From the NCBI GenBank assembly GCA_951406725.2, contig OX597817.1:22010001-22074000 (forward strand): a stretch of DNA of 64,000 nucleotides, written 5' to 3'. The notes under the pieces were generated by a model. The model ran no database searches and was not told the origin of the DNA. It worked only from the letters and a program-made list of their open reading frames with translations. Numbering within the stretch: position 1 is the stretch's first letter; each line of letters begins with the position of its first letter. The DNA is from Octopus vulgaris. Taxonomy: Eukaryota. Of this stretch, positions 6,988 to 63,823 are shown in pieces. Both the position numbers and the translations under genes were made by a program.

Positions 6988-7073
6988 ATAGATAGATAGG
7001 TAGATAGATAGATAGATAGATAGTTAGATAGATAGATAGATAGATAGATATATAGATAGACAGACAGACAGAC

Positions 7074-7158
<85 letters not shown>
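6988..7158. repeat. (AGAT)n/(AGAC)n microsatellite
   Basis: Direct reading. Confidence 0.97.
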
Positions 7159-7732
7159 TGTAAATATATCAGGCTTTATTCTTGACAACTCACACCGTAT
7201 GAATGACTTGGATTCGATAATTCTAATATTCACATAGATATACGTTTGTGTGTGAGTGTACACATGCAAGCCAACTTATTGAAAAACAAAAGAAGACGTT
7301 GGAATAAATAAGACTGGAAAACGGTGATTCCTGTTCTTACTTGGATGATTTAGAATATGGCATGCTATAACTTATTCGCTGGAAACTGTTTTTGCTTTTC
7401 ATTGTTTGCTGTTACTTTTTTTTATATTAGTTTCATTTTTCTGCTTGCATAAATTTAGATGAACAGCTCACGTGAACTTTCATTAAATCATTTATTTTTA
7501 TATATATAGTCTGTAACATTTATAAAATGTGCTATAGCTTCTTCTACTGCTGCTACTGCATCTGGTTTTCAAATATGCCAGTGAAAGTCTGGAATACACA
7601 AAGACGGAGTCTCTATATGACACATGAACTGTTAGAGATAGCAACCAAATCGCTCAGAATTACATTCTCTTAAAAATTATCACATTGGATATTGTAGTCC
7701 AAGATATACATTTCTCAGAAAATAAACTAGGT

Positions 7733-7900
7733 AATCATGTACGTTATTTACATTACTTACAATTGACGGATATTTGTCCTCATCTTGTTTGTTGTTAACA
7801 CAACGTTTCGGCTGATATACCCTCCAGCCTTCATCAGGGGTCTTGGGGAAATTTCGAACCTGGCTCCTCATTCCTAAGGTATTTTTCGCTGTTGCTATTG

Positions 7901-7939
<39 letters not shown>

Positions 7940-8011
7940 CCACTGCCTGGAATCGAACTCGGAATCTTGGGGTTGGTATCCAGCGCACTTAACCACTACA
8001 CCATATGCCGG
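7733..8011 (-). mobile_element. Solo PLE terminal repeat: tRNA-like head + (AAT)n + hammerhead
   Basis: Matches the terminal repeats of the PLE at 19070-20333 and both arms of 55400-56114. Minus-strand box A TGGTGTAGTGG and box B GAGTTCGATTCC. Interrupts a copy of the old repeat. Confidence 0.85.
7797..7842 (-). ncRNA. Minimal type-I hammerhead ribozyme motif
   Basis: Minus strand GACCC-CUGAUGA-A-GGCUG-gaggguauau-CAGCC-GAAA-CG-UU-GUGUU: intact core, stem II, palindromic stem III and one mismatch in stem I. Confidence 0.75.
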
Positions 8012-8092
8012 TAGTCATGGTTAGAATGCATTTCATACAACTTAAGTCTAAACAACCACGTGTGCTGCTTGGGCTACTATTGATCTTACTCT

Positions 8093-8285
8093 AATTTAGG
8101 TACAAGGCCTAAAATTTTGGGGGAAGGCATAGTCGATTATATCGACACCAGTTCTTATCCGGTTATTTACTTCATCGACAGCATAGGCATGAAATTCGAA
8201 ATATTTCCTGGTCAGATCATAGAGAGCTGGAAAAAATAATACAATGAACTTTAGCGGATGCTCTAGAGCTTCTTCCAATCCTCTG
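8093..8285 (-). mobile_element. Degenerate family A SINE (old tail)
   Basis: GGTACAAGGCCTAAAATTTTGGGGG...AGTCGATTATATCGAC is the reverse complement of the old-subfamily tail. Confidence 0.6.
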
Positions 8286-8719
8286 CTCTTGGTATCTAAT
8301 AATATTGCTGCCACACAACTGTCCATCAATATAGGCATACTACCTATTCTTACACATGAATAAGCATCTTATACATATTTTATACATAGGTTTTCATCCG
8401 TCTCCATGTCTCGAAGCGTATTACTACATAGCGTTACCTCTTTACCTTATCCATATTATGGAATGTTAAGTTCTTGTCAGTTGAATTATGCAAGGTTATT
8501 TAGTTTACTTAGGGGATTCATGTTCTAGGGTAATGTAATTTTCTATTCTACAGTTTCTCTTGTATAGATCCTCCTCTCCCTAACCTATTTGTTTTCCATC
8601 TGCAGGACACGGTTCTAAAACACAAGCTTTCTGCATTTGGATAGACCGCTTAATAAATCTCCCTTCAACTGTATTATACGTTCTAAAAAGAACACATTAG
8701 ATAGTATATTACATGCATT

Positions 8720-9046
8720 ATGGCTCAGTGGTTAGAGCGTCGAGCTTACGATCGTGAGGTTGTGAGCTCGAATCCCGGACCGGGCTACGTGTTGTGTTCT
8801 TGAGCAAGGCACTTTATTTCACGTTCCTCCAGTTCACTCAGCTGTAGAAATGAGCTGCGACGTCACTGGTGCCAAGCTGTATCGACCTTTGTCTTTCCCT
8901 TGGATAACACTGGTGGCGTGGAGAGGGGAGGCTGGTATGCATGGGCGACTGCTGGTCTTCCATAAACAACCTCGCCCGACTTGTGTCTAGGAGGGTAACT
9001 TTCGAGGTGCAATCCCATGGTCTGTGTCGTGACCGAAGGGAGTCTC
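8720..9046 (+). mobile_element. tRNA-derived CORE-type SINE
   Basis: Box A TGGCTCAGTGG, box B-like GAGCTCGAATCC, CORE-like TTGAGCAAGGCACTTTATTTCAC...CTCAGCTGTAGAAATGAG, then a LINE-like tail. Confidence 0.85.
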
Positions 9047-9815
9047 CGAATAACTGAATAGTAAAATGGATGATCATGGATGGAGCGCCTTTGATCAGAA
9101 ACCAGTTCAATCGGTGCAGATCACCGACTAATCAACAACTGGCGCTTATTTTATTGATTCCAATAGAAACTGAAAATAACTATTCTAATTACCATATTTC
9201 ATGCATTCGCTCGCTCAGTTAAATCAACCATTTCACCTTCCCTTATTCAATTACTAACAATATTTTATATAAGCAATTTTGATGTCTAAACATATTCAAG
9301 AGGCTGGAAATTTTGAAGAGGAGACAATTGTGAGACATACATAGATTTCGTTAACGATAGAAGCAGTTGAATATTACGTGAATGATTATCAAGTGGAAAC
9401 TGAAACCACCCTGCAGGCTCCAGTTATTCATGAGTGAACCATTATAATGCTTAACTAAAAGACTGAGATTTTTGTAGGACGGCGTTCAGCTGTTTTAATG
9501 TTTTGTGTTTGCGCCAGTGAATACGCTTAATTGAATATGTATGTGTGCGAGTTTGTTCGTGCTTGTGTGTGTTTGTGTATGTGCGTGTGGCGAGATGTGA
9601 TTGTGCATGTGTTGGAGTGACTTTATGTATGTGTTTGTGTCTTTTCGTGGCAGAGTCTGCGCATAGGCGTGGGTATTTCAATAGACAATCAAATTGAAGC
9701 TTATTCAAAACAATATTTTGTTTATTTGTCCGTGAACGGCACTAAACAATGGAATCCTGAGTCTCAGCCTCAAAAGACTATTAATGTATGTGTGTGTGTA
9801 AGTGTGTCTATGTAG

Positions 9816-9999
<184 letters not shown>

Positions 10000-10680
10000 A
10001 GTATACATACACACATGCACACACACACACGTTACGCATATGTACGCATATGCGCACACATGCACATGAAAAGAGAGAGAGAGAGTAAGTGAGAAATACT
10101 CATGGTTTTGTAACTAAATTACCACTGCAAAGTGTATATTGTCTTGGGTTGGGCATTAATCAGCTATGCTATATGAATTTATTTCCTATATTCATAAAAT
10201 ACAATTGAAAAGTTTAGTAGAATTTATTTCGGTTTATGTGATTCTTTTGTGCAGTTCTGGGGAAACGTTTTGTTTTTAGAAGATGATTCAGTAAAGGATA
10301 TAGATAATGCAAAATAAGCATCTATGCCTATTGTACACACACTCACACAAGTGTGTGCATACGTACAAACACACACGCACATATGTATGTATGCAGGTGT
10401 GTGCATATATTTATATAGGTGTGAGTGTGTACGCGTATGTGTGTGTGTGTGCATATATGCATCTATGTCAAGTAAACGTATTTATATACGAATATATTTA
10501 CATATATATGCATATACATATGTATGTATATATATATATGTACATATTTTTGTGCATATGTGTAGTTTATATAAGTATATATATATAAATATATATATAC
10601 ATATATATATATATAAGTGTATCTCTGAATGTGAATGGTTTATATATATATATAAAGGTATATATATATACGTATGTATG

Positions 10681-18806: not shown

Positions 18807-19037
18807 TATTTCTTTATTGCCCACAGGGGGTTAAACATAGAGGGGACAAACAAGGACAGACAAAGGGATTAAGTCGATTACATCGACCCCACTGCGTAAC
18901 TGGTACTTATTTAATCGACCCCGAAAGCATGAAAGGTAAAGTCGACCTCGGCGGAATTTGAACTCAGAACGTAACGGCAGACGAAAAAGAGCTACGCATT
19001 TCGCCCGGCGTGCTAACGATTCTGCCAGCTCGCCGCC
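18807..19037 (-). mobile_element. Full-length young family A SINE with TSD
   Basis: Near-identical to 31788-32020; flanking direct repeat TTTCTAATAGTA at 18795-18806 and 19038-19049. Confidence 0.93.
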
Positions 19038-19220
19038 TTTCTAATAGTAACAACTTAGTAACATTTATACAGTTCTATACTTAAGAGATGATAAATTATG
19101 TACGCTGTTTACATTATTTACATTTGACGGATATTTGTCCTCATCTTGCTTGTTGTTAACACAACGTTTCGGCTGATATACCCTCCAGCCTTCATGGGAT
19201 AAACACCACTATAACTGACC

Positions 19221-20095
19221 CTATGGCTGCGATATTTCAATGACACCTTTATACTCTAGCACCATCAGGATGATGTCCAAGTGCTGTTAGATCATGTGAA
19301 CTCAATAAAGCCATCCATACAATTCGCAATGGAAAAAGAAAAGATAATCAGCTAGCCTTCCTGGACGTGTTAACGTCACGCACCAAGTATCAATTCAGGA
19401 CATCCGTATACCGCAAGCAGACCTTCACTGGACGATACCTCAACTTCAATTCCCACTATCCATACAGTGCTAAAACATCGAGCAAAAAAGATAAGTAGCG
19501 ATCGTGATACACACCATGAAGAAATAATCAAGCTCAGAAACAATCTATTAAGCAACAACTACACCAAAAACATACTATCCACTCCAATTATGAAGAAAAG
19601 TGAGAATGAAATAAATAAACGGTCCACAGTCTGTCTACCCTATGTGAAAGGCCTCTCCGAAAAGACACAAAAGATATGCGGCTTATATGACATCAGGAGA
19701 GTACTCAAGAGTAACACTACACTTCGCAAATATCTCCTTCGAGTAAAACCACCAATATAATGGAATATGACCAAATATTTTGTGTACTCCAACCCATGCA
19801 GCTGCGGTAGGTTACACAAAGGCGAAACATGCCACCCCCTCAAAATAAGAGTCGAGGAACATTGCAAAGGAGATATTGATAAATCGGGTATAGCTGATCA
19901 TGTATAGAAAAATGGTGACCACCTCCCCCTGCAGGACGAAGTTAAAATAATAGACAGAGAACAGCACTGGAAAATGCGAAAACTAAAAGAAGCAGCACAT
20001 ATGCTAGGACACAACCTCGTAAGCAGACCGAGTGCAGATATGTACAGCATATGGGAACTGGTATTAAGGAAGAATAGGAAAATATTAGATTCATA
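19221..20095 (+). pseudogene. Decayed PLE ORF: RT C-terminal half/thumb + GIY-YIG endonuclease
   Basis: LWLRYFNDTFIL (YVDD-like), IQFAMEKEKDNQLAFLDV, VYRKQTFTGRYLNFNSH, CLPYVKGLSEK, VYSNPCSCGRLHKGET...RVEEH, KSGIADH, RKLKEAAH; contains stops and a frameshift. Confidence 0.9.
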
Positions 20096-20250
20096 AACCC
20101 TAAATTCACTCCATAAGTACCCACGGGCATATGGCGTGGTGGTTAAGATTCCGAGTTCGATTCCAGGCACGTAATAATACGAAGAAGAAGAAGTAGAATA
20201 ACCTCAAAAAATACCTTAAAAATGAGAAGCCAGGTTCGAAATTTCCCCAA

Positions 20251-20296
20251 GACACCTGATGAAGACTGGGAGTTATCTCAGCCGAAACTTTGTGTT
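20251..20296 (+). ncRNA. Hammerhead ribozyme motif in PLE 3' repeat (degenerate)
   Basis: GACAC-CUGAUGA-AGACUG...CAGCC-GAAA-CUUU-GUGUU; stems II and III are mutated relative to the other copies. Confidence 0.6.
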
Positions 20297-20925
20297 AACA
20301 ACAAACAAGATAAGGATAGATATCCGTCGTAATATTTGAGAAATCTTATCAATTTGGAAAATGATATCGCTAAAATAAAAGATTTTAGCAAACCAACGTT
20401 GATACGGTTTAATATATTACTTTTACTCGCTATTTCACTTGAACAAACATTTCCCATTCTTATATCCAGTTCCACCCAGGAATAACAACTTCAGTGACGG
20501 ACAATACTTAAACTTTCCTAATTTCATTCCCCATTCCCTCAGTATATGCTGAAATATGTGCGAGTATTTTATGTCAATTACATGTTTCGAATCATAAAGA
20601 ATATATTCATGAAGTTTATAGATGAATACAAGCGAAAATATACGTGTGTGCTCTGTATATATGAATATATATATATATATATATACAGGTATATATATAT
20701 GCGCGCGCACAAATGTATCTATATAATGTATTCATGTACATGTCTTAAGGTTGCGTATATATATGAAATATATATATATATATATTTATATATAAAGATA
20801 GATATATAATATAAATAGATATGTATACGCATAAATACACACACACACAAATATATAAACGTCTGCGCGTTTGTATATATATATATGTATATACATATAT
20901 ATGTGTGTATATATATATATATATA

Positions 20926-26750: not shown

Positions 26751-26948
26751 AGATTCTTATTATTATTATATATGAGTTCTCAGAATCGATATAGCATCAG
26801 ACAAAACATATTGTGGTCTTTTTTCCCGCTCTTTATATTTCAATTTTAATTCCAATCGAGTTAAACTTTGTATTTAATCCTTCCTGGGTCGATAAAACAA
26901 TTTACTGGTGAGATTTGAACTCAGTATACATACAACCGGAAATTTACC

Positions 26949-27180
26949 TATTTCTTTACTACCCACAAAGGACTAAGCACAGAGAAGATAAACAAGGACA
27001 GACAAACGGATTAAGTCGATTAGATCGACATCAGTGCGTTACTGGTAATTGTTTAATCCACCCCGAAAGGATGAAAGGCAAAGTCGACCTCGGCGGAATT
27101 TGAACTCAAAACGTAGCGGCAGACGAAATAACGCAAACCATTTCGCTCGGCGTGCTAACGATTCTGCCAGCTCACCACCT
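26949..27180 (-). mobile_element. Full-length young family A SINE, 18-bp TSD, nested in an old family A head
   Basis: TSD TACAACCGGAAATTTACC at 26931-26948 and 27181-27198; the flanks (ATTTGAACTCAG... and ...CTTGTCCAATGCACTAAAGATCTG) reassemble into a decayed SINE head. Confidence 0.92.
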
Positions 27181-28427
27181 TACAACCGGAAATTTACCAT
27201 AAGATATCTTGTCCAATGCACTAAAGATCTGACAATCTAAATAGGTTAAACTTGTTTTCGATAGTTCGCTGAACAATAGTACTACATTATAAAACAAAAC
27301 GGTTTTAAAATAGGTAACGAAATAATTCGATGAAATACGATATATTATAGTCACATCCTGTCACTGACCAGGCAACAACAGCTCATGATGTGCAATGGTA
27401 TAGGAATTCCTCCAGACACTAAGCACATTATATTTATCATTTTATTTATCATTTTATTATTTCGTTAATTTTTTTTTTAGCTAATGAATTCTTCGCTTTG
27501 ATATCGGCAGTGCAGTATTGGTGAAATGATATCCTAGCACGCAATTGCTTTGCAGTGTTGCATTAAAGCTACTTTTTCTCACACATCAGTAATTGATCAT
27601 AAAAAAATCCATTCATTTGAAGTGAAAGGACAGACAACCAAAATGTAAACCTTTGATGCTTTGTTGTCTATTTTTTTTTCTACTCAGTGACTTCGTTTGA
27701 TTAATTTATATTTCCTTTCCTACTTGATGTAAGTGCAGCTGACTTATGCCAAATATCTCTGAAAGCTCCCAAAATGTTTTACTTGACAGACATTCATTTA
27801 TATCTGCTATTCAGTGCTGAACGGCCATTTTTATTAATCTTTTAGTGACTTAACGTAGAAACCATTTTGAAACATTCTCTGGCTTTCATTCCAGGGAGCT
27901 ACACAAAAGTCTGGACAGGATCAGATCAATTTTAAAGCTCGTCTGTCTAATCAATGCTATTCGATGACTTTAAAGCAATTGCACCACCTAACATTCGGTT
28001 GCACTATAATATTATTACAGAAATTCACAATGTTATTACTTTCATGTGATCAATTTAGAAAATTGTACTGAGTTGCCTTCCTGCATAAACTATTATGTAT
28101 TATGGTCTGGTAATATAGCTGTTGAATAAATTCGAACCCCTTCTTTTTTTCCGTGAATTGTAGTTAACATATATATTCAGCAGTGAACAAAATGTGTGTA
28201 GAATAGATATGTTGCTTGCTTTCAATGATTCAAATGCTCCAGTCACTGTACGTCTGTCTGTATACATTTAATGACAACAAATTTTAAATCTCGATCAAAG
28301 ACGTGTATTGCACATGGTGTAATTTCTTTGGCTATATGTTTTTAAGAGCCATGTTTGAAATACAAGGTTTTTTAAAAATATACGCTAAAACATTGGAAAA
28401 TCTGCTAGCTAAAATCGAAATCCTACA

Positions 28428-28851
28428 TATTTCTTATTACTTTACTGCCTACAAGGGGCTAAACACAGAGGGGACAAACATGGACAGACAAATGGATTAA
28501 GTCGATTACATTGACCCCAGTACGTAACCGGTACTTATTTAATCGACCCCGAAAAGGATGAAAGGCAAAGTCGACCTCGGCGGAATTTGAACTCAGAATG
28601 TAGCGGCAGACGAAATACCTATTTCTTTACTACCCACAAGGGGCTAAACACAGAGAGGACAAACAAGGACAGACAAACGGATTAAGTCGATTACATCGAC
28701 CCCAGTGCGTAACTGGTACTTATTTAATCGATCCCGAAAGGATGAAAGGCAAAGTCGACCTCGGCGGAATTTGAACTCAAAATGCAGCGGCGGACGAAAT
28801 ACCACAAAGCATTTCGTCCGGCGTGCTAACGTTTCTGCCAGCTCGCCGCCT
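28428..28851 (-). mobile_element. Head-to-tail dimer of young family A SINE
   Basis: Two units joined at CGAAATACC|TATTTC (28619/28620); outer direct repeat AAATCC(T/C)ACATATTTCT at 28418-28434 and 28856-28872. Confidence 0.92.
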
Positions 28852-31787
28852 TTTTAAATCCCACATATTTCTGTCTCCTTCAAAGAATAAAATGAATTTA
28901 GGAAATATGAATTCACCAATGTTTTAGCATCAGCTTGTAAGTTCTACACATTGGCCGCTGCATTTTAATTTCAAGCAGCGCTTAACTTTGATTTATATAC
29001 ATCCTGGGCGAATATGATTAGATAAAATTAACGTTAGTTCAACGAATTCACATGACTGATTAATCTCCTCTAAATATTGTGTTTGCAAATAAGAATTCAC
29101 ACATACTACAACACTTAAGGAATGAACAATAGAGTAAAAGGCTGCCAGCGGGAGGAAACTGAGAACTGCTTTGATATTTGGAAACTAATTAATTACTCTT
29201 AAATCCTTATTTTTATGTCTCTTTTACTTTCAAGTTTACACATAGACCATCAAAATAAACCAATGTCAAACCTTTCTTCAAAAGCATATATGTTTCGCAA
29301 GTTCTTTTGATAGAACTAGAAATATCCCGATTTTCAAACACTGCCAATTTGGTAATTATCTTATTATATTTATTAGGATGTTATACTATAAAGTATTGTT
29401 GTTGATGGACAACCCTGATTGAGCATATTTTTGACCATAAGCATTTCAGCAGTGACCATATTATATTTCTTTTTTCAAGACATAGTATATCTAGAACTAT
29501 ATTACCTATTTCAAGACATAGTATATCTAGAACTATATTACCTTCTTTAAAGACAGTAACGTGTGGCTTCAAGAAAATCTGTTGTCTATTTCTAACTGGT
29601 CGAATAACTCCAGCTGTTTCATATACATATAGCTCGTATGTGCATAACAGAGTAAAGGAATGCATTTTGATGCAACAGGCATACAAATACAGATTGTCAA
29701 TTCCACCAAAATAAACTGATCTTCACTAATGCATTGACTACCTAATTGCTAGAAGTATCCATAGCAAAATCAAACTTTAAGTCTCAATACCAACGCGGGA
29801 AAATTCTTATCAGGAGCACCAATATATCAACAAAACGTTGCGCGATTTGGGGATTTACAAAATCCCAACGCTAAAACAAATGACTAAAACAGATGGATAT
29901 TTAAGATCCGGTATTTTAGCCTATTTGCTGCTCTACAACCTGGTACATAAGGAACGATACAGAAAACACTAACTCAACTGGCAGCACTACACCAATATTG
30001 TGATTTTAAAAAATATCTGCATTATTAAAGCCACATCAACTACCTTATCACAAACATTACCTGTCCCCAAAACATTCATCCGTTTAAAAACATCCGAGAC
30101 GCCTAAACGAGTTGTGTTGCTTTATACACTAGAAATAGCAGTCAAATCTCTCTTTGAAAACACTATACCGTCTTGAAAAAAGATAAAGCACATTAAATAA
30201 TGTGTTGGGGCAATCAGAGATTGCCCTAACACACAAGTTAGTTTTGTTTGGAGCGCTTTTGATCGATCAATGCCGCATTATTAAAACCACATCATCTAAT
30301 TTATCACAAACATTACCTGTCCCCAAAACATGGTGGAGAGGTAAACAACAATAAGAAGAGCTACAATTAAGCTGCGATTTCTTTTGTTGTTTGTTCCTTC
30401 TTGAGCCATGCCTGTCTCATAAGGGCCGGTTTCCCGGTTTCATTGGCGTATAAGTTCTCAATTGATGTTCATATCTGCAATACATTTGTTGTAAGGTTTG
30501 ACAATCTTTTATACAATTTCTAATAATATCTATTTATAAAACTATGATTTTGTTAAACATCGAATGTCTAGGAGGGTCTAAGGAAATAAAATAGGAGTCA
30601 AAGAGTCCATATGGGTCCATGGTTGAGAAATACAGCTCTGCTATCTTGAATATGTAGAGTATATTTTAAACCAATGTGGTTACAGATATCACCACCAAAA
30701 AGTTTGGTATTTTACGCCAGAAATGTTTTAATCACGAGTCATACTCTATTACAGTTTACCTTGGTCTTAACAATAACAACATGCCAATCAAAAGTGCTAC
30801 CAATACTTATCACAACTAGTAAAATAGTAACATAACTAGCAAACCTAAAATTAACAACAATACCTTTAGCACTAATAAACAACGTCTATGCCACTACCAG
30901 GAGTGTTGCGTCCAATGTTTTTCGTAACACTTTTGCCATTTACATAACAATACTATTATCAGCACTGCTGCACCATACCTATCGATGCCAATAAGATCAC
31001 TGTATTATCAATAAAATAATCAATGCATTTAATTATTATGTAAGTGGCTTGGTATTTTTCAAAATCGTTTACCTATAACCTATTCCTCAAGCCAAGCAGT
31101 GAGACACAGTATGTGATTTTCTCAACCTATCAATTATGTTTCAAGTCCGACCGACAGACGTCCACGCATTTTCAGTTTTAGGATTTGGACGATATGGAGC
31201 TATGGTAGGACTCACTGGGTCCAAAGCGCTGTGAAAGGACCGGACTCAAGACCTTATGAAAGAGTAGCAAACTTGTTAATGAGTTTCTAGAAATAGCAGC
31301 CAAAACTCGCTCAGATAACGCGTATTGTCTTAAAAAGGCAGGAGACAACGAACATCAAATTCCTCGAAATTAAAAAGCTACCGTAGCTATGTTATCTTTA
31401 AGCAAAGATCTACCCGATCAGAACTAAAAAAACAACAATTACACCAGCATGAGCAATACTACAGTACTAATTAATCTGCATTAAATCATTACCATAACTA
31501 CCACGGTATTACCATTACCATCACAATTAGTATTACCTCCGATACCACCATGTCTACCTTTACTATTACCATTATCATCAGGATTACCTCCACCTATAAT
31601 TTCATCACTACCAGCCAGCAATGAAGCTTCTACGTTAAAACTTGACTTGCTAGTAATAGTAATGAAAATCGCACTCGAATCACACATTTCCTACAAAACT
31701 AATAACGCATTCAACAAAGTAATTCTAGATTTACAAAAATGGGTTGGTCACGTTTTGAATATCTTTGATGGTAGGTATTCTCAGTTA

Positions 31788-32020
31788 AAGGCGGCGAGCT
31801 GGCAGAAACGTTAGCACGCCGGGCGAAATGCGTAACCGTATTTCGTCTGCCGTTACGTTCTGAGTTCAAATTCCGCCGAGGTCGACTTTGCCTTTCATCC
31901 TTTCGGGGTCGATAAATTAAGTATCAGTTACGCACTGGGGTCGATATAATCGACTTAATCCGTTTGTCTGTCCTTGTTTGTCCTCTCTGTGTTTAGCCCC
32001 TTGTGGATAGTAAAGAAATA
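31788..32020 (+). mobile_element. Full-length young family A SINE with TSD
   Basis: Head AAGGCGGCGAGCTGGCAGAAACG, box B GAGTTCAAATTCC, tail ...TAAAGAAATA; TSD GGTATTCTCAGTTA at 31774-31787 and 32021-32034. Confidence 0.95.
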
Positions 32021-32965
32021 GGTATTCTCAGTTAGGTGCTTATCTGATATAGACAACAGTAAACTCATGATTACTCAGGCAAAAAGAATAGCAGCAGACC
32101 GAAGTACAGCCAGCCTTCATTCGCGATCAAGTAGAGCTTTCCAACATGTGCCATGCTTTCTCTGAAACCTTTAAGTACCTGTGTTGTCGCAGACACTTTC
32201 TAACCTCACGCCCAAATCTTTTACGCCAGCAGAATATCCAGGATGAAGCAGGCGGGGTAAAAGAGGGCTGCGCCACACATAGCTTGTACTCAACAAATCT
32301 AACAAAACTGTTGTAAGCCATATGAAATGAAGGATGAGTTATGTTACCCGGTCCATGAACTGAAACCACGGCCTTATGATCATGAGTCAAACACCTTAAC
32401 CACTACACTATACAAACTAGCAAACTAACATTCAATCAGACTAACAATGGGGATCTATGTATTTAGTCGACTAGTAAGAAATTGCAGCCTAATTTCCCAA
32501 TCACACAGTATTTTCTTAAAAGAAGACACATTGGATAATATAGTTCACTATGCTTTGGTAGAAAAACATGAGACGGCCATTGCCAGAGGCTGGACACCTT
32601 TTGACCTAGGGCTAATCAACAACGTTGTCACGTTGACTACTAACACCATCAAGACCAGTGCGAGGCTTCTATGTGGTTGCTCGTTACTGATTAATGATAT
32701 TGGATTCTTCTTCTTCCCCCACATCATCACATAGGAAATAACATATTAGATAAAGTGGGCTTTAGAAGACACTGCCAGACACGAGCGGTTGTTACGGTTT
32801 GAACGCCATTGATCATGTATCTGGTCAATCAGGATTGACCTGAGATTGAACGACAAAAACACTACTAATCACGTTACACTAATACAACCATCAGCGCCAA
32901 AACCACCATCACTAACACCACTGTTGCTACTGCTGCAGGTGCTGCTACTAATGCTGCGGCTGCTA

Positions 32966-45584: not shown

Positions 45585-45970
45585 CTCTAAGCACAAGACC
45601 TGAAATTTTGGCTGATGGGGCCCAGTCGATTAGCTCGACCCTAGTACGCAACTGATACTAAATTTATCGATCCCGAAAGGATGAAAAGCAAACTGACCTC
45701 GGCGGAATTTGAACTCAGAACGCAAAGACAAACGAAATACCTATTTCTTTACTACCCACAAGGGCCTAAACACAGAGGGAACAAACAAGGACAGACAAAC
45801 GGATTAAGTCGATTACATCGACCCCAGTGCGTAACTGATAATTATTTAATCAACCCCGAAAGGATGAAAGGCAAAGTCGACCTCGGTGGAATTTGAACTC
45901 AGAACGTAAAGATAGACGAAATACTGCTAAGCGTTTCGCCTGGCGTGCTAACCTTTCTGCCACCCTACCC
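45585..45970 (-). mobile_element. Chimeric family A dimer: young-tailed unit joined to an old-tailed unit
   Basis: Junction ACGAAATACC|TATTTC at 45741/45742; the left unit has the old tail (GCACAAGACCTGAAATTTTGG) and the right unit the young tail. Confidence 0.88.
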
Positions 45971-47691: not shown

Positions 47692-49264
47692 AAGCTAAAT
47701 TTCCACTGCGTTGTTACACAATGATTCTTATGATTCTTGTTCAGATTTTGAGGTGGCTGGCATGGTAAATTAGGAAACTCTCTTTTTATCAACATCATAC
47801 ATAAATTGGCTGTTATCAATCGATGCTAAAAATAACTTTTGACAAGCTTTACTAGTTGCATGTTTTGGGTGAAAAATAGAGAAAAGACTTTAGACATTTA
47901 AAAAAATATTATAGACAGATTCCTTGTTGATATCGGAATGAAACAACCATTTTGTCTCCGCGTTCCTCCGTCTATACATGCGTACACACACACTCACACA
48001 TACACACACACACACATGCATATGTATATTTTAATATCTTCAGTTTCATTCTTTTACGAAGAGACTAAGATGGTGTGCTAGGTGTACTACGATAAAATTA
48101 TTGCACCCATTACGCACATAAGAGCTCAGCGAGAACTTCTTCAATCAGATACAGTGAACATGATTGCTAGTACCGGTTTTGTTCACTAAATCGTTCATAT
48201 CTATTAATTTTTATCTATATAACAAAATATTATAAATTAAATGTGATTATAAAGTAACTATATATGTCTTAATGTTTTTGTAACTCCAATTTAATGTATT
48301 TCTTACACACACAAGCTCACACACAGACAGACACACGCCCTCACATATAACTATTGTTATTCATTTAGAAGTGGACATACGTATGCACACACGTATGTAC
48401 ACATATGCAGACTGACAGATAGAAAGATAGGTAGGCAATCACGAAGACATATACATGAAGTGTGCGTACATATATCTATATTTGTGTATGTATGAAAGAG
48501 TGAGAGTGTATGTATGCATATATAACATACAAGAAATGAAAGTAAATAAGGAGAGGAAAATAATTGCCGAAGGGAAAGGTAACAGAATAGGGAAGAGTGG
48601 GAGTGAGTGTTTTTGATGGTGGGAGTAAGAGATAAGGAAATAAGATGGAAGCAAGGAAAATTTTATATATAAATTTTTAAAAATAGCTGAAATGCTACGG
48701 CATAGAAAGCTGTTTGAACAGAACTGAGAGGCAGGACGAGAAATAGAGAGGAGAGAAATAGTTGGTGGTAGAGAGGAAGGGGACAATGAAATGAATTATT
48801 ATGCAAAGTAAATGTAAGGGAGAAAGCAGAGGAAGTAACCAAGGAAGCAGGAAAGGAAGCAACAAAGGAAGCAAAAAGACAGCAAAAATGGATAGAATAG
48901 GGGTGGGGGGATGAATAAGAATAAAAAGACAGAATGAAGGAAGGAAATGAAGGCAAAAGAAGAGTTGAATAGATAGATGCGTAGAGAAGGATGATGGGAT
49001 AGAGAAAGCTGAAAGATGGTAGTAAGTAAAAAAGGAATGACAGAATAATCGGTTGACAGAAACACTGCGGTGTTTGTAGTTCATAAGCGATGTGTGCTAT
49101 TTTGGTTTCAAATCTTATGTAGGTCAATTATGACCTCTATGCTTTAACATAGTGTTTGACATTAAATGAGTAGCTGTACCGAGCTAAAAACATACTCCTC
49201 CGCTATTTTAAATGGTGTTGCCTGGTGACAATACATAAACCCGTTAATAAATATATTTTTTTTA

Positions 49265-49619
49265 GGTGGAGGCGCAATGGCCCAGTGGTTAGGGCAGCGG
49301 ACTCGCGTTTGTAGGATCGCGGTTTCGATTCCCAGACCGGACGTTGCGAGTGTTTATTGAGCGAAAACACCTAAAGCTCCACGATGCTCCGGCAGGAGAT
49401 GGTGGTGATCCCTGCTGTACTCTTTCACCACAACTTTCTCTCACTGTATTTCAAAGGGCCGGCCTTGTCACTCTCTGTGTCACGCTGAATATCCCCGAGC
49501 ACTACGTTAAGGGTACACGTGTCTGTGGAGTGCTCAGCCACTTACACGTTAATTTCACGAGCAGGCTGTTCCGTTGATTCGGATCAACCGGAACCCTAGT
49601 AACCGACGGAGTGCTTCCA
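49265..49619 (+). mobile_element. tRNA-derived SINE, family C (resembles octopus tRNA-Arg-related SINEs, from recall)
   Basis: Box A TGGCCCAGTGG, box B GGTTTCGATTCC, ~350 bp GC-rich body; near-identical inverted copy at 51109-51484. Confidence 0.9.
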
Positions 49620-51108
49620 TATTTTTAAAGGAAGGGGCTAGCAAATTGTTATTGATGTTATTTGGCAGCATCGTTAGAGCACTGGATAAAATGCCTTGCG
49701 AGATTTCCGGCCGAAGCCAAAATTTACCCTTTAGCCTTCTAGGCCATAAAATAAAATAAGAGCCAATACTGGGTTCGATGTAATCGACAAATCCCCTTCT
49801 CTCAAAACTGCTGTGAATTGGTAGAATGGTTAGTGTCAAAGAAAATGCATTGCTATATTTATTGTGATGTTTTAGGACTGTGTTTAAATCCCGCCGAAGT
49901 CAAGTTTACATTTATCCCTCCGATCCGATTTAATCGACTGACTCCGCAACCGCCCATATTTCAGGCCTTGAACCTATGTTGCTTATCCTCATTTTGGTTC
50001 TAATCAAACAGACCTATGATCAATGGCAAACCAAACGTGAGCTTCTCTTCTGTTTTAGGGATGTCTGTAACTACAGTATTATAAGTGTTCTATTTTGTTT
50101 AATCCAACACAGTGGAATGTCATCTAAAAGATATTTGACTGCTATTTTACAAGTCCAGTTGAATATTTATTCCCCTTCGTTTATTCAAAGAAGACGGGAT
50201 AAGAGGACATCTAAAGTTGAAGAGTGCTGCTATTTGGTGTCTATCCTTTTTATATTCTGAATTCAAATCACGCTGATGCTCACTATAACTTTTAGCTTAT
50301 CCGTATATTAGTCATGTTTTAGAATAGACATGATCGAGTTCAACCTGTATAACAAATGTGTGGCTTTGTGCTCATTATAAAGATTCATTATTACAATTTT
50401 TCTAAGGGAGAAAAACCGACTGAAACCCTAGCGTGCAAACAGTACTTAGTTAAGGCTTTTTACTTTCTTCTAAGATAAAATGGTAGTTAGAAAGGAAGCA
50501 AAAACGCATTAAAGCTGGAGAGATTAAATAGGAAAAGGAAAGACGGAATAAATTAATGAAATACAGAAAGAAAGACAAGGAACGCAGAAAGCAAGCAAAA
50601 AAATAGACATGAGGGAAGATGATTGGTTAACAGACACTTGTGATAGTCGACATGGGATTGAGAAGAAGTGATGGAGTGAAAGAAAGCTGAAAAATAAGTA
50701 TTATCAAATGCAAAATGACAATGACAAAGGAGTCAGGTGACAGAAACACTAAATAACGTGTAATTTCGGTTTCAAATCCTGTACAGATCGATTATACCCT
50801 CCATCCTTCCCTGGGTAGCAATCAAAAAGATAAGTAGCATTACGGGGCTCATAATTTACTGTATAGCTATCGTATATCGTGAAGCTTTGTGACAGCATTA
50901 AAGTTGATTTAATGCAATTATTTTTTTTTTAATGAGGACAAAATGTTACCCTCGTTAATCGTTAGAGCGACGGGCAAAATTAATCTTATGGTATTTGTTC
51001 CAGTATCGGTTTGGCTGTTAATCATTTTCAGAGGTCGATAAAATAATGGGAAATGCTGAAGGTGGATTGGTTGCTATTACTTCAGGCATTTCAAACACAT
51101 ACACATAT

Positions 51109-51484
51109 GGAAGCGCTCCGTCGGTTACGACGACGAGGGTTCCGGTTGATCCGATCAACGGAACAGCCCGCTCGTGATATTAACGTGTAAGTGGCTGAGC
51201 ACTCCACAGACACGTGTACCCTTAACGTAGTTCTCGGGGATATTCAGCGTGACACTGAGAGTGACGTGGCCGGCCCTTTGAAATACAGGTACAAGAGAAA
51301 CAGGAAGTAAGAGAAAGTTATGGTGGAAGAGTACAGCAGGGATCACCACCATCCCCTGCCGGAGCCTCGTGGAGCTTTAGGTGTTTTCGCTCAATAAACA
51401 CTCACAACGCCCGGTCTGGGAATCGAAACCGCGATCCTACAAACGCCAGTCCGCTGCCCTAACCACTGGGCCATTGCGCCTCCA
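51109..51484 (-). mobile_element. Family C SINE with TSD
   Basis: Reverse complement of 49265-49619; direct repeat CACATACACATAT at 51096-51108 and 51483-51495. Confidence 0.92.
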
Positions 51485-52194
51485 CATACACATATACGCG
51501 CGCGTGTATATACAAACAAAGAAACACATGGTCACGTTTAGCTTTTCACGTCTGTATGTCAATTGGCTGACCTCCAGACGATACACTTTTTTTTCTTATA
51601 TGCTTCCAGTTGCGCACTGTCTATTGAAACGATTTATTTCTTCAATCAGGAATTTAACATCTGTTAAGAGAACGAATGTTCCTAATTAGATGCTTGTTTA
51701 AGGACTTATACATACGCCGTGAGGTGACCAAAATTTCGAACAGTATTTGTGAGCTTTGAAATCGTTAGCTTTTGTTGATATTGTATTCACATTTAATGTT
51801 GATAGGAAATGTTTGGAGGCTTTGTGTAGACTTGCAGTACTAAATCCTTAAGGGACGAGTCATTGATTCCTTCTATTTTACATAACCTGCAGACATAAGC
51901 TCGCAGAACTTCAAAACTTGTAAGTCTATACGTCATGTCCAATAGTAGAATACCTTTGTGACTTTCTCACACTTTATATGGCTATTATGTGAGTGGAAAT
52001 CGTAAATCATCCATATTTCTCAATAAGTAATTTATTCAATACTTTTTTCTTGATATTTTTGTCGCTATCATTATGTCACACATTAAATATTTCTTATGAT
52101 ACCCATTAAAAGTGTCGGCTTGTAATATCGCAGTGAAGTCAAATAGTTTGTCTATTTTGTTCTGTATGATATTTTTACTTCATTTTTTTTCTCT

Positions 52195-54671: not shown

Positions 54672-55463
54672 TTAGGAAACACTGTGAAAAGGTTGGGAAC
54701 ACTACTATAGATGTTAGGCTATATAACGATATTGATATCAGAAAGTTCTTAAAAGGACGGTGAATTAAAGCTTGGTGCTGATAATAATCCAATGTAAGGT
54801 AAATGCACACACACACACACACAATCTCTCTCCCTCTCTCTTTTTCTCTCTCCTCTCTCTTTCTCTTCATCTCTCTTTCCTTCGCTGTCTCCCTCTATCA
54901 CTCTCTCCCTCGCTTTCTCTTCCTTTCTCTCCATCGTTCTTTCTCTCTCTCTCTCTCTCTCTCTCACACCATACACGCTCACACATACATAAACACAACT
55001 GCGCAAACAGACGCACAATTCAAACACACATTACACACACACACACACACACACACACAATACACACATACACAAACAAACAAACAAATAAACAAACAAA
55101 CAAAACAACCAACACTCATACCCATAAACATACACAAATAATTATTGACCGCTGTACACAAAGAAAATTATTAAAATGTTGCCAACAAGGAATTACTTTC
55201 TGGTTGCGCAATTTACTTGAAATAGTAACAAAATTTCCATCTTATCATACACTGGCATCTTAAAAAAAAGAAAAGGGTATATTTGGTTAATGTAATCCTA
55301 GATATCCTTAGAAATATGGGGTGGTCACTGCTGAACTGTCTTTACTGACAGACTTGGTTTACCAGGATTTCCATTAGAAAAATAAACAATAAAAACAACA
55401 TTATTTACACTATTTACATTATTTACATTCGGCGGATATTTTGTCCTCATCTTGTTTGTTGTT

Positions 55464-55509
55464 AACACAACGTTTCGGCTGATACACCCATCAGCCTTCT
55501 TCAAGTGTC
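55464..55509 (-). ncRNA. Hammerhead motif with mutated core (UUGAAGA)
   Basis: Minus strand GACAC-UUGAAGA-A-GGCUGAU...AUCAGCC-GAAA-CG-UU-GUGUU. Confidence 0.55.
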
Positions 55510-55777
55510 TTGGGGAAATTTCGAACCTGGGTTCTCATTCCTAAGGTATTTTTCTATGTCATTATTATTATTATTGTTCAGGTCACTGCTTGGAATTGAA
55601 CTCGGAATTTTGGGGTTAGTAGCCCGCGCTCTTAACCACTACGCCCACGGGCATATGGAGTAGTGGTAAAGAGCGCGGGCTACTAATCCCAATATTCTGA
55701 GTTCTGTTCCAAGCAGTGACCTGAACAATAAAAATAACAACAACAACAGCAGCACAGTCAACAATAATAGCATAATC

Positions 55778-55848
<71 letters not shown>

Positions 55849-55856
55849 TGATGATA

Positions 55857-55923
<67 letters not shown>

Positions 55924-55970
55924 TCGAAAAATAACTTAGGAATGAGAACCCAGGTTCGAAATTTCCCCAG

Positions 55971-56016
55971 GACACCTGAGGAAGGCTGGTGGGTATATCG
56001 GCCGAAACGTTGTGTT
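55971..56016 (+). ncRNA. Minimal type-I hammerhead ribozyme, best-preserved copy
   Basis: GACAC-CUGAGGA-A-GGCUGGU-ggguau-AUCGGCC-GAAA-CG-UU-GUGUU: all stems pair, core CUGANGA/GAAA/UH intact. Confidence 0.8.
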
Positions 56017-56978
56017 AACAACAAACCAGATGAGGTCAAAATATCCGTCGAATGTAAATAATGTAAATAGTGTAAATAATGTACATAATTCCTCATCTCT
56101 TAAATATAGAACTGGATAAAAACAACAACAATAGGTATAAAGTAAACAAATAAATTACCAACCAGCTTCTTGCACGGACAGCCACTCGGGATGCATTTAG
56201 GATACAGAGAAAGAGCGCACAGCCGTTTGTTTCCTCTTCAGAATAGAAACGGTGGGTTGAACCATTCTCCCAGGACAAACTAGTAAGTTTTACTCATAAT
56301 TTCGTAAAATATATTCGAGGCCAGGATATTGCTTTCCAGTAGTCACCTTCTACTTTGCGCTGGAGAGAAAACAAAACAAAACTCTGACCTCGGCCCTTTA
56401 CAAATAATTAATAACGATAGCTATTATTATCTAAGAGACAACAGTGTAAAATAAACATATATCAACGACCAACAAACAGAAAAAAAAACATTAATAATAA
56501 TGACGCTAAGAATAAGAATAATCGTTGTGATGATAATAATAGTAATAATAACAAACTTCACAAATAATAGTGCGAAATGCTGATGATGATGATGTGGAGG
56601 ATGAGGATGATGATGATGATGATGATGATGGCTGTAGCAGTATCAATACTAATAAGAAAATAAGCAAAACGAAATGAGTGGAGAAATGAAATTAAGATTT
56701 AGCGTCATATTAAAGTCACGTAGTTTCGTCTATTTGCAAACGAAGAATATATAATATTCTGTTTGCAACGAGAATAAATGACTTATAGGTTTTAACTTCA
56801 ACTGATTAACTATATTTCTGGATAATTCAATTTTGAAGAAGGAAAATTTAGCTATCCAATGACCCCAATAGAGAAATCGATATGAGAGATGCGAGTTAAA
56901 TTTGCAGCATTGCTGAAACTTGAATTGGAGAAATGAATTTCAGCGTGTAATTTCTGCCGGGCAAAATGGATATTACTA

Positions 56979-58766: not shown

Positions 58767-59153
58767 GACAATAGAGATTACAAAGCTTGTCATTTTGATT
58801 TATCTTCTCATTCTAACCATACCCCCTATCATCTATCCACAAATACTAGCAATACATTCTCAAATTTTCATTCACCACAAAACATCTTCGAATGAGCAAT
58901 ACAGAATCCACGGCTCCATACTTTGAAATGACTAAACATGAACTACTATTGGATCTTACATACCATGTGCAGGAAACTTTTTTACCACTTCTATACACGA
59001 CTTTACTCGAATAATGGAGCTGCATCTAAAATGTTTTATATTTCATTTCTACCTTCATTCTCTTACTTCCCTCTATATTCCCTATCTCTCCTGTTCCACA
59101 ATAATTCCTTATTTCGAATTCAAACATTTACCTGTATTTAACCATCTCACATC

Positions 59154-59201
59154 GTCTCTGATGAAGGGATATCCATAATATCCCAGAAACAGCTGTAAAA
59201 C
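59154..59201 (+). ncRNA. Hammerhead motif, second family, copy 2 (intact core)
   Basis: GUCU-CUGAUGA-A-GGGAUAU-ccaua-AUAUCCC-A-GAAA-CAGCUG-UA-AAAC; palindromic stem III ACAGCUGU. Confidence 0.7.
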
Positions 59202-60156: not shown

Positions 60157-60496
60157 CTTTCTGTCTCTCTCTTTCTCTCTCCTTGATGACGAATCTTGCA
60201 GACAGATGTGAGATTACTGAGAAGGCTGAGAAACATAGGCCTTTTATTTGACTCAGCTTGTTGCACAAGCTTTATAGAAGCTGTTTCAACCAATTCCGCC
60301 TACATCATTTTCCGACAGCATAGAGACTGATGAGTTGGTAGGAAGAAAGTGGCACTCAAAAGGCTTGTAGGTGTTGCATAAAATTTTAATAAATCATATG
60401 GAACGGAGACAAACGGATATATATAAATGCGTATGTATATATCAGTTTGTATATATATATACTTCATAACTTAAAATTGAATAGAAGATCTGAAAA

Positions 60497-60542
60497 CCAC
60501 CTGATGAATGTCCTTAGAAGAGACACGAAACAATAGTAGTGG
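60497..60542 (+). ncRNA. Hammerhead motif, third family
   Basis: CCAC-CUGAUGA-A-UGUC-cuuagaaga-GACA-C-GAAA-C-aaua-G-UA-GUGG; heads the AT-rich repeat also found at 39520 and 59810. Confidence 0.72.
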
Positions 60543-60728
60543 CTAATTTAATTTTATTTAATTTATATAAAAATTTTTATGTATTGGATTAAGTGTTTCT
60601 TTGTTTGATTTGCATAATAGTGGTTTTGTCTCTAATTAATATTATATAATATTTTACTATAAAATTGTATTCAATCCTAAATCTGATTTTTCCCTGTAAA
60701 TTTGGATTTATTCCCTAATATTTATTAT

Positions 60729-60813
<85 letters not shown>

Positions 60814-60818
<5 letters not shown>

Positions 60819-61138
60819 GTGTACATACCATTACGTATTTATACACGAAAGAGGTGACCTTTGACAGGACACCTTACATGCTAGAAAGGGCAGTCAAAAT
60901 CCAAACCACGAATAAAAGCAATTTCAAAGGGAATGAAAGTAAACAAAAACTATTAATTTATTTGCTCATTAATACAGAAAGTCGAGTTTGAGGTGAACTA
61001 TAAAAATATTTTTATTTTCATTCCTTTCAAATTGCTTTTATTAGTGGTCTGAATTTTGACTGCTCTTTCTAGCATGTAAGGTGTCCTGTCAAAGGTCACC
61101 TAGTTCGTGTATAAATAGTTAATGGTTTGTATACTATT
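60814..61138. mobile_element. MITE/foldback element with ~125-bp terminal inverted repeats at a TA run
   Basis: AATAGTGTACA...AGGTGACCTTTGACAGGACACCTTACATGCTAGAAAG...GAATGAAA mirrored by TTTCATTC...CTTTCTAGCATGTAAGGTGTCCTGTCAAAGGTCACCT...TGTATACTATT. Confidence 0.88.
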
Positions 61139-61529
61139 ATATATGAAAATATGTTGTCTATTGACTTTATTACGCATGCTAGTCACCGGTATGATTCCAT
61201 TAGGACAGAATGCCATGCTTTTGCTGGCCAATGCTTTGTAGAGCCTTCAGCATGATGGCAGTTTTGCATAGGGACAAGTTCTGCAAACGGGTTCTTCAAT
61301 ACGGTTGGTTTTGAATAGGTGTGGTAGAACATAGTGTAGTGCTAACTGCATGCAAGCTGGGAGTTAATCATAGGCGGTGTCATTTGGGTGAGGATAACTA
61401 ATTGCTGAATGATCCTAAACTCCCAGTGACCTTCGAGAACATCAGTGACGACGTATAAAATATCTTGAGTGTCTCTATATGAGAGTATATGTGTTCGTAA
61501 ACTATATTTATAATTATGTATATACAAAC

Positions 61530-61784: not shown

Positions 61785-62348
61785 CTTTATTATACACACA
61801 CACACACACACACACTCGCACGCACACACATAAAACAAATTTCTAGAATGTCTTTAGAGGGATATATAATCCTAGTGTTACCGTGCTCGCTCTTATTGGT
61901 TGACAGTATTAACTAACCTCAGTAAATGTAGATGAACTCCAATTAGTTGAATTTACTACAATAGGTAAATCCAAATGTCTTTATAAGGACATAGTGTCTA
62001 CCGACATATTTATATATGTTTGTGTATGCATATTTTTATATATATTTGAGTGCGTGGGTGCTGTTTTGTGTATACACACACACACAATCACATATATATA
62101 TATATGCCAAGGTATGTATACAAGGACGTTAACGTATGTATTTGCATGCATGTATATGTTTACATATATATGAGTATGTACATTGAATGTATGTGTGTGT
62201 GTTTGTTTATGTGAGTGTGTGTCTGTGTATAAGTATATATATATATATACCCTAACACAGACACACTCAGGCACACAGACACACACGCACACACACATGC
62301 AATTTATATACTCATATATATGCAAACATATATATGAGTATATATGTG

Positions 62349-62422
<74 letters not shown>

Positions 62423-62437
62423 TATATATATATATAT

Positions 62438-63823
62438 GGAAACAAGTCCCTTGCAGTGAATTACCGTCCGATCTCACTCACCTCTCATATCATCAAGGTA
62501 TTTGAGAGGGTGGTGAGATCTCGAATAACCCAATTTCTGGAAAGCAACAGACGGCTGATCTCCAACCAACATGGGTTCCGTAATGGAAGGGACTGCCTAA
62601 CGCAGCTCCTGCATCACTTTGAGGACATTTTGAGAGCTTTGGGAGAGGGCTCCAACACCGATGTCATCTACCTTGATTTCAGTAAGGCCTTCGACAGAGT
62701 CGATCACAAGATCCTATTGAAAAAACTATCCAACATTGGTGTCTCTGGAAAGTTACTGAAATGGATTAAGTGTTTCCTGACAGACAGATCTCAACATGTT
62801 GTAGTTGAAGGGGTAAAATCAAGCCCAGCCAAAGTCAGTAGTGGCGTTCCGCAAGGCACTGTGCTGGGCCCACTTCTTTTCATCATTTACATTAATGACA
62901 TTAATGACATCATCAAGCACAGCAACATAAAAATCTTTGCAGATGACTCCAAGCTACAGAAGGTCATAAATGAGGCGAGTGACCGGACATGCCTTCAGTC
63001 AGATCTACTGGCTGTTATCCAATGGGCAGAAAAAAACAATATGCTGCTGAACGAGGATAAATTTGAGCTAATCCACTTTGGAAAAGAGGATGCCCTGAAA
63101 CTCCCATACTTCCTTCCTTCAGGTGAAACTCTCGCGGCGTCCAACAACATCAGAGACTTGGGAGTAATTGTGGACAACAACGTAAGCTGGGCCACTCATA
63201 TAAACACCAAAGTTGACATGGCCCGCAGAATGTGTTCCTGGATTCTCAGAACTTTCCAGTCGAGAGATATCCACACCATTATCCTTCTCTTCTCCACTTT
63301 TGCCCGACCCCACCTTGAATACTGTTGTCCACTGTGGTCTCCCCACACAATACAAGGTATCATAAAAGTTGAAGCACCTCAAAGGGCAATCACAAAAAAG
63401 ATAGATGGCATGACAGGCCTCGACTATTGGGGTCGGCTAGAAAAGCTAAAACTCTATTCTCTCCAACGTCGTCGTGAGCGCTACATCATCTGCATGATGT
63501 GGAAAATATTCCATCAGCATTGCCCAAATGATGTTGGCATCACCTTTAAGGTACATCTAAGGCTTGGGCCCCGTGCCATCCGCCCAAAACAAAAATCGCA
63601 CTCTCATCTCATAACAACAATACGGCACAATTATTTCACCTCAATTGGCCCCGCTCTCTTTAACATTACACCAAAACACATTAAAACAGAAACTGACCCT
63701 ATAGGGTTCAAGAAGTCTTTGGACAGATTCCTTCAAGAAATCCCGGATAAACCCCCTACACCTGGATATGTCTCTGTAAACAATAACTCTCTACTTGAGT
63801 GGGCCATAGTGCCCAAATTCTGA
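62438..63823 (+). CDS. Non-LTR reverse transcriptase + C-terminal domain (ORF2, lacking endonuclease and true start)
   Basis: [66 protein letters not shown]; 461 sense codons with no stop or frameshift. Confidence 0.95.

Follow-up and report, generated by a model that had tools for sequence, protein, structure and literature searches.

A decayed head-to-head insertion of an abundant Penelope-like element in Octopus vulgaris and a candidate snap-back route to its inverted ends

Head-to-head pseudo-LTRs (pLTRs), palindromes at their junctions and self-priming have already been described for Penelope-like elements (PLEs) (PMC3846280), as have PLE tails, copies in inverted orientation and dimeric hammerheads of weak activity (PMC8557442, PMC4209133), and the formation of head-to-head ends is treated as an open question in PMC8557442 and PMC11167929. 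Pen2a and Pen3a of Adineta (PMC3846280; overview in PMC8557442) resemble the octopus family analyzed here in having an inverted pLTR placed head-to-head, a junction palindrome, a target site duplication (TSD), an optional 30-40 bp tail at one end, and an ORF start within the pLTR. Their pLTRs are described with TATA/Inr-like motifs, whereas the octopus family has a tRNA-like head with A and B boxes; PMC3846280 infers an antisense template, whereas the octopus polarity data point to first-strand cDNA; and thousands of octopus copies fix the end to -6/-7 (unit numbering, with the tRNA-equivalent G as +1). Poseidon of Anolis (PAc; PMC11167929) is likewise similar, with a hammerhead over its ORF start, a tail between two reverse transcriptase (RT) start sites, both target strands cut and extended, and uncut RNA as the main template. 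It differs in that the accessible portion of its account describes no tRNA head and leaves the 5' end of insertions unexplained (PMC11167929).

Other systems share single parts of this architecture. The schistosome SINE-like repeats Sm-alpha and Sj-alpha (PMC6765202) have a Pol III-type promoter followed by a hammerhead, but they are tandem, head-to-tail and non-coding, whereas in octopus the promoter and hammerhead together make up the terminal repeat of a protein-coding PLE, with dimers placed head-to-head. The TRIMp3 elements Cassandra, Helenus and Ajax carry a small-RNA-derived Pol III promoter within the terminal repeat, but they are non-autonomous LTR elements with PBS and PPT whose autonomous partners are expected to use Pol II, whereas the octopus head sits on an autonomous element (PMC10886601). 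Non-LTR retrozymes (PMC7229834; bioRxiv 10.64898/2026.07.22.740005) are ORF-less, PLE-derived and equipped with a type I hammerhead, as is the octopus foldback, but they form tandem arrays and make circles by double cleavage, whereas the locus has one sense ribozyme per strand. A retrozyme requires tandem head-to-tail hammerhead units and the locus is an inverted pair, so we rejected this assignment.

Set against these systems, the architecture is known and the new points lie at the level of the family: a fixed end, a readable loop polarity, and a tRNA-type promoter in a coding PLE. Octopus tRNA-derived SINEs with tRNA-derived heads, named OK, OR1 and OR2, were reportedly described by Ohshima and Okada in 1994, and an entry for this head, or for the short unit, may already exist under such a name or in Repbase or Dfam. 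A literature search that had most subscription papers and Repbase outside its scope did not turn up any autonomous PLE described as having a promoter derived from a tRNA, and the word 'hammerhead' is absent from the main text of an octopus repeat paper (PMC13282606).

The foldback and its two arms

In the window, the whole 64,000-nt stretch of Octopus vulgaris DNA that was analyzed, a preliminary description had noted two terminal-repeat units joined head-to-head with no ORF between them, each reading outward as a tRNA-like head, (AAT)n and a minimal hammerhead. The pairing stands: inverted arms at 55398-55578 and 55902-56082 are 93% complementary, with identical alignment columns at 64/73 positions in the heads and 150/161 in the 3' parts, and the insertion spans 55401-56115 with a 12-bp target duplication at 55389 and 56116 on either side. 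Because one 12-bp direct repeat flanks both arms, this is a single insertion. The outward order of each arm was also borne out by motif matches and alignments; ARAGORN and Rfam returned no tRNA and no hammerhead at the locus, and both assignments are motif matches and alignments of our own. The consensus of the B box is GTTCRANNC. The features of the locus and of two related copies in the window are as follows.

7725..8012, minus strand: single pLTR copy of the foldback's family
19064..20329, plus strand: body-linked copy with an inverted 5' arm, a truncated RT/GIY-YIG body, and a 3' pLTR from ~20120
55389..55400, plus strand: left TSD copy ATAAAAACAACA, 12-bp direct repeat
55401..55645, minus strand: left arm (locus L305), a tailless pLTR copy ending at the short RT start site and lacking unit positions +1 to +8, which makes the join asymmetric
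55401..55538, minus strand: broken PLE ORF start, ATG at 55538, one stop and one frameshift
55464..55509, minus strand: left minimal type I hammerhead, whose core (TTGAAGA) has C3U and is predicted to be impaired
55592..55603, minus strand: left B box, matching the consensus
55636..55646, minus strand: left A box, first T changed to G through the junction
55643..55652, no strand: quasi-palindrome GCCC-AC-GGGC, presumed site of the RNA 5' end (-6) and of snap-back, where the 39-nt class has its junction
55643..56114, plus strand: right arm, a complete pLTR copy plus tail
55656..55666, plus strand: right A box, C11 changed to A
55699..55710, plus strand: right B box, broken (GTTCTG, not GTTCGA)
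55728..55921, plus strand: expanded (AAT/AAC)n leader of 194 nt, versus five AAT units in the left arm
55942..56114, plus strand: broken PLE ORF start, with a +A frameshift common to the left arm
55971..56016, plus strand: right minimal type I hammerhead, intact core, predicted cut after 56011
56084..56114, plus strand: PLE 'tail', the stretch between the two RT start sites as described in PMC11167929, in the right arm only
56116..56127, plus strand: right TSD copy, 12-bp direct repeat

Three details of the preliminary description needed correction. One is the symmetry of the join, as the left arm starts only after unit position +8. Its junction site, GCCCACGGGC, is present at 55643, but the copy at ~20120, which it held to begin with the same site, reads TACCCACGGGC, and the family majority is ATTGCCCACGGGC. 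The absence of an ORF holds only in part, since each arm retains, in broken form, the initial ~54 codons of the PLE reading frame, with ATGs at 55942 (+) and 55538 (-). Common to both arms are 164T, an extra frame-shifting A and a variant repeat unit; because the ORF-start frameshift is common to both, the locus may derive from a copy that no longer coded for protein, unless later conversion made its arms alike.

Judged by conserved core, stems I and II and a palindromic stem III remnant, the putative right-arm ribozyme has all the parts of a minimal type I hammerhead, in agreement with its first description as intact, whereas the left arm fails at C3, a residue whose requirement has been demonstrated for C3G, not C3U (PMC11167929). 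Neither arm retains promoter and ribozyme together, the right having an intact core but a broken B box and the left the opposite. Read-through RNA is predicted to fold into the long hairpin that had been proposed (-396 kcal/mol, z -33), in which each ribozyme would pair with its own antisense and be buried in dsRNA. Rfam miRNA matches at the locus were set aside as generic hairpin resemblance, and as for a host exon, 0 of 120 non-repetitive frames of at least 65 aa passed the Pfam cut-off. The locus is a decayed copy that we read as dead, with no sign of special function.

The window holds several further repeats. A 549-aa open frame at 62174-63823 (+) has an RVT_1 domain (E 7e-31) and is likely a young LINE running past the window edge. 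A second SINE-like family of ~240 bp, with 85-93% identity and tandem partial copies, lies at 18807-19044, 26913-27181, 28435-28857, 31787-32026 and 45624-45962, one copy standing directly left of the PLE at 19064. Two more inverted pairs, of 89% and 80-86%, occur at 49263-49622 / 51105-51488 and at 60801-61152, and hammerhead-like cores with other stems at 59145-59200, 60183-60250 and 60490-60545 probably belong to other PLE families.

The Penelope-like family and its tRNA-like head

The unit of the family consists, in order, of a tRNA-like head with A and B boxes, (AAT)n, an ATG at +116, and ~54 codons overlapping the hammerhead. It adjoins a PLE body at 19064-20329 in the window and, in the majority of 30 loci found by a body match, lies downstream of that body; near-full copies extend from the tail into the ORF, and the family's ORF-start peptide matches the N-terminus of the full-length PLE protein P0003 (E 5e-10). 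The majority sequence of 24 long copies contains a 794-aa open frame with YVDD at 495 and a GIY-YIG-type motif at 687. The search for homologues yielded 51, and Pfam gave no match for the 321-aa piece. Judged by domain order, the family fits an EN+ PLE, with a single putative ORF encoding RT and then a C-terminal GIY-YIG endonuclease. The pLTR of such an element contains a hammerhead and the ORF start, both found here, and an inverted 5' copy, a tail at one end and a TSD were found as well: tails occur on both arms in only 1/60 loci, and 9/15 scorable head-to-head insertions have a TSD of at least 6 bp, versus 3.5% of shuffled pairs. Nine distant metagenome loci are related, and 0 of these have the tRNA-like head.

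The family is very abundant. In the searched genome (2.8 Gb, 227 contigs), an evenly spaced 800-kb sample contained 12 insertions, corresponding to ~40,000 genome-wide, and exact matches to the tail motif total 4,937. There are 796 exact foldbacks with two heads (versus 1 in the control), with 440 exact matches to the symmetric centre, 79 to the 39-nt centre found at this locus, and 430 to the native read-through junction; these counts are lower bounds, given that outside CpG sites copies differ from the majority by ~4-5%, and 40 initially scored, query-biased loci were excluded from the centre frequencies. The inversion centre is thus shared by hundreds of exact foldbacks, and the random scatter of centres that had been named beforehand as the refuting outcome did not appear. 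The locus thus represents a single decayed example among very common head-to-head PLE insertions.

Two observations concern body-linked copies. The body-to-head junction (window 20100-20135, and the family majority) is a decayed inverted copy of the head 5' end, as if the head had entered the element as an old fold-back insertion. Three body-linked loci on C17 (L046, L049 and L050), two tailed and one tailless, have private variants in common and are either a local source lineage or a segmental duplication.

Among 9 host tRNA genes the head best matches tRNA-Arg (score 61 versus 25.6 +/- 4.7 for shuffles), with identity to the best tRNA at 51/74 positions; this assignment of a source tRNA is tentative because the 20/34 tRNA matches retrieved cover just six amino acids. 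The A and B boxes are canonical at the family level, so that the family has the tRNA-related head of a SINE, and are damaged at the locus. The head suggests that the element may be transcribed by Pol III. In the sense strand we found 0 T4 runs in the unit and 0 in the majority sequence of 24 long copies (2,699 nt), also with deeper 5' coverage, where 4.9 are expected from a base shuffle (P 0.004), 2.7 from a synonymous ORF shuffle (P 0.037), 3.3 from third-position resampling (P 0.017), and 1.6 under an order-2 Markov null (P 0.23). The deficit is modest and gone under the Markov null; G4 runs are likewise absent from the PLE majority, and natural family copies have 0.46 T4 runs per kb. Seven control ORFs from two other PLE families (L393, not a PLE, being excluded) have 2-7 T4 runs per kb, all at expectation. 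These two families (L388-L392, L394, L395) have long open frames, and one of them is young because its copies have 95-99% protein identity; an A/B-box pattern was not found on their sense strand within the stretches examined.

Among 30 copies with the ORF start, 2 begin at the head without upstream body and 2 more have a full inverted head, and several are partial tandems, from which read-through clearly occurs (L416 and others). Three raw RNA runs (another species label, ~6% read, apparently unstranded) each contain 7,000-10,000 family reads, equally from both strands and including fold-back junctions. Their depth tracks copy number, and across these three unstranded runs the family reads have no start or end piles and yield no Pol III transcript or 5' end. 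This pattern fits passive transcription of many copies and speaks neither for nor against a short Pol III RNA. Run X21 gave 0 reads on unique flank, but its species label differs from that of the best-matching runs, and a sequencing-run search returned no RNA run among the matches listed. A fuller account, which we consider possible though rather doubtful, is that an autonomous coding PLE captured a tRNA promoter, that Pol III makes the template, possibly the whole 2.7 kb with T4 runs purged, and that the ORF-less dimers are snap-back-joined strong-stop products.

Fixed ends, loop polarity and the source of the arms

The foldback is one decayed insertion of this abundant PLE, probably formed when RT copied the element RNA as far as a fixed 5' end, directly upstream of the tRNA-like and probably Pol III promoter, and the new DNA end snapped back on a small palindrome. 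In the data, the unit is a pLTR plus ORF start, copies stop at -6/-7, the arms of an insertion have one source, the tail is on one arm, and one TSD encloses the pair. We surveyed the ends of 90 tail matches, the first in a list of 100, which all lie on C1, were taken whatever their 5' end and were classed automatically. An inverted arm is present in 62/90; 33 copies stop at -7..+10, 12 run into the body, 12 end within the head, 32 end 3' of the head and 1 elsewhere (the class of L199 is ambiguous). Among head-reaching copies, 33/45 stop at -7..+10, versus 3.5% per 17 nt predicted from the body stop rate. Fold-back follows an end at -6/-7 in 614 matches (some loci counted twice) and an end at -14, where a longer hairpin is available, in 1; a real template end is favored over stalling because of this difference, with 3'-flap trimming as a caveat. 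The fixed end lies 13-14 nt upstream of the A box, which is the usual Pol III spacing.

The fixed end could instead mark where the RNA is processed or where Pol II initiates. Hammerhead-cut RNA as template was considered and rejected as weak: 10/47 ends in unit 96-242 fall at 183-197 by hand count, with ~5 expected, but only 1 is at 186, and the interval was chosen post hoc and overlaps the palindrome TGTTAACA.

In the strongest of the rival explanations, the tRNA-like head would be a passive relic: RT on a long Pol II RNA would stall at the hairpin around GCCCACGGGC, or the end would mark a Pol II start or processing site, with joining by cDNA snap-back or host microhomology repair. The native junction is indeed an imperfect hairpin, RNA depth follows copy number without piles, both subfamilies yield long and short forms, and the Penelope promoter of D. 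virilis is described as internal, TATA-less and LINE-like (PMC2377424). However, stalling on long RNA should often use the -14 hairpin, which gave the single match above (flap trimming could mask others), the A and B boxes have stayed canonical although the remaining head is just 51/74 identical to the best tRNA, T4 runs are absent, and the end lies at its particular distance before the A box. We therefore consider a relic head unlikely.

The snap-back reading makes a prediction about polarity: after first-cDNA fold-back, the arm reading AC through the loop would be the original. In the first 30 symmetric-centre loci, a full AC arm with 9-22 nt of fold-back before a jump occurs in 22 and the reverse in 5 (P=0.0015), with both full in 1 and neither in 2, which fits the suggestion that the palindromic head primes its own copying. 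Double fold-backs at the head, as from two snap-backs in succession, were seen at L149, L268 (one of the 22 AC-polarity loci, with a second fold), L300 and L308. Jumps into the second cDNA have a 1-5 nt overlap in 11/15. The tail is on the fold-back side in 29/39 loci and on the AC arm in 10/39, including this locus; because of the 29, the far part of the fold-back arm must stem from a second priming event, which would fit the two start sites and two-strand cutting known for PAc (PMC11167929). Most fold-back arms of the 39-nt class have the long head, and this locus, with its tail on the AC arm, is of minority polarity. A GT version of the 39-nt centre occurs at 13 loci, and we rejected it as proof that fold-back arms seed new copies because the same loci also read as the symmetric class plus a 7-nt slip.

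By this snap-back reading, the A/B boxes would start an RNA at G(-6), and the protein would nick both target strands and prime two cDNAs, one at each RT start site (unit ~238-250 and 278). If priming took place in the pLTR closest to the RNA 5' end, the cDNAs would be ~280 nt long and strong-stop-like. The first cDNA 3' end (...GCCC GT GGGC) would then fold back and extend into sense sequence, which would anneal to the second cDNA and so join the two arms; second-register priming (GCC at +9..+11) or a 7-nt slip would yield the 39-nt junction of the locus. The copy here would have decayed after insertion, with no function of its own.

The two arms of an insertion come from one source. They agree at subfamily sites +64, +154 and +223 (P 3e-9, 4.5e-6 and 1e-9; 111/175 loci with enough overlap, including one duplicate pair, L028/L202), and rare variants common to both arms exceed expectation (17 versus 5.1 and 36 versus 9.9), at 3-4x the level of shuffled pairs; post-insertion gene conversion could also explain the agreement. 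Inter-locus distances are 0.084 for AC-AC, 0.095 for FB-FB and 0.089 for AC-FB, with 0.079 within loci, and an arm-specific lineage is absent because the three are alike.

A second rival takes the short head-to-tail unit as an independent tRNA-derived SINE family that the PLE mobilizes in trans. Copies starting at the head are more frequent than those reading through (33 versus 12), both locus arms have the same ORF-start frameshift, as if from a non-coding source, and allele 64A is slightly commoner in foldbacks (99/197) than in native junctions (83/210, P=0.036). Against it, the autonomous element itself bears the head, the ORF stays in frame in the subfamily variants, and a separate SINE lineage is not seen at this one marker because both subfamilies give both the long and the short form. 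On this sequence evidence we rejected a lineage apart from its PLE partner, and we hold independence of the short unit to be very unlikely.

Ambisense function and the meaning of the family

The preliminary description went further and proposed a minimal ambisense-ribozyme unit, transcribed in both directions and functioning or propagating in that form, an idea we now find highly improbable. Outward-facing heads on both strands, both hammerhead cores intact in 21/55 loci with both aligned, and foldback junctions among the family RNA reads speak for it. However, the locus has one ribozyme duplicated by inversion, with the left core C3U and the right B box broken, and read-through RNA would be expected to pair each ribozyme with its antisense; minimal PLE hammerheads need dimers and cleave weakly (PMC4209133). 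As a replicating entity it fares no better: dimers arise anew with each insertion, no arm-specific lineage exists, copy ends do not pile up at the cut site, and no discrete transcript ends were seen in the RNA runs. A viroid-like ambisense-ribozyme replicon was rejected for the single inverted ribozyme, its left C3U, and the burial of both copies in the hairpin. The joints listed for the three raw RNA runs, from a library unsuited to circles, include no back-joint of a circular RNA. An assembly or long-read fold-back artefact has a negligible chance: although the foldback is nowhere covered end to end by a short-read contig, its arms are 7-12% divergent and have microsatellites of unequal length, the insertion has a TSD, contigs from two further runs, X1 and X15, contain the left junction, and the same centres recur at hundreds of loci.

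The preferred reading, a decayed PLE insertion closed by snap-back, draws its interest from the family, whose natural reaction products run into the thousands, share a single fixed end and have a loop polarity that can be read. The snap-back model is therefore directly testable in the existing in vitro system. The thousands of inverted pairs of ~250 bp are likely a source of dsRNA for editing or silencing. If snap-back-joined strong-stop dimers are confirmed, they would provide a general mechanism for inverted PLE ends; a coding retrotransposon driven by a tRNA promoter, if true, would blur the split between LINEs and SINEs, and would offer one route to promoter-plus-hammerhead repeats such as Sm-alpha.
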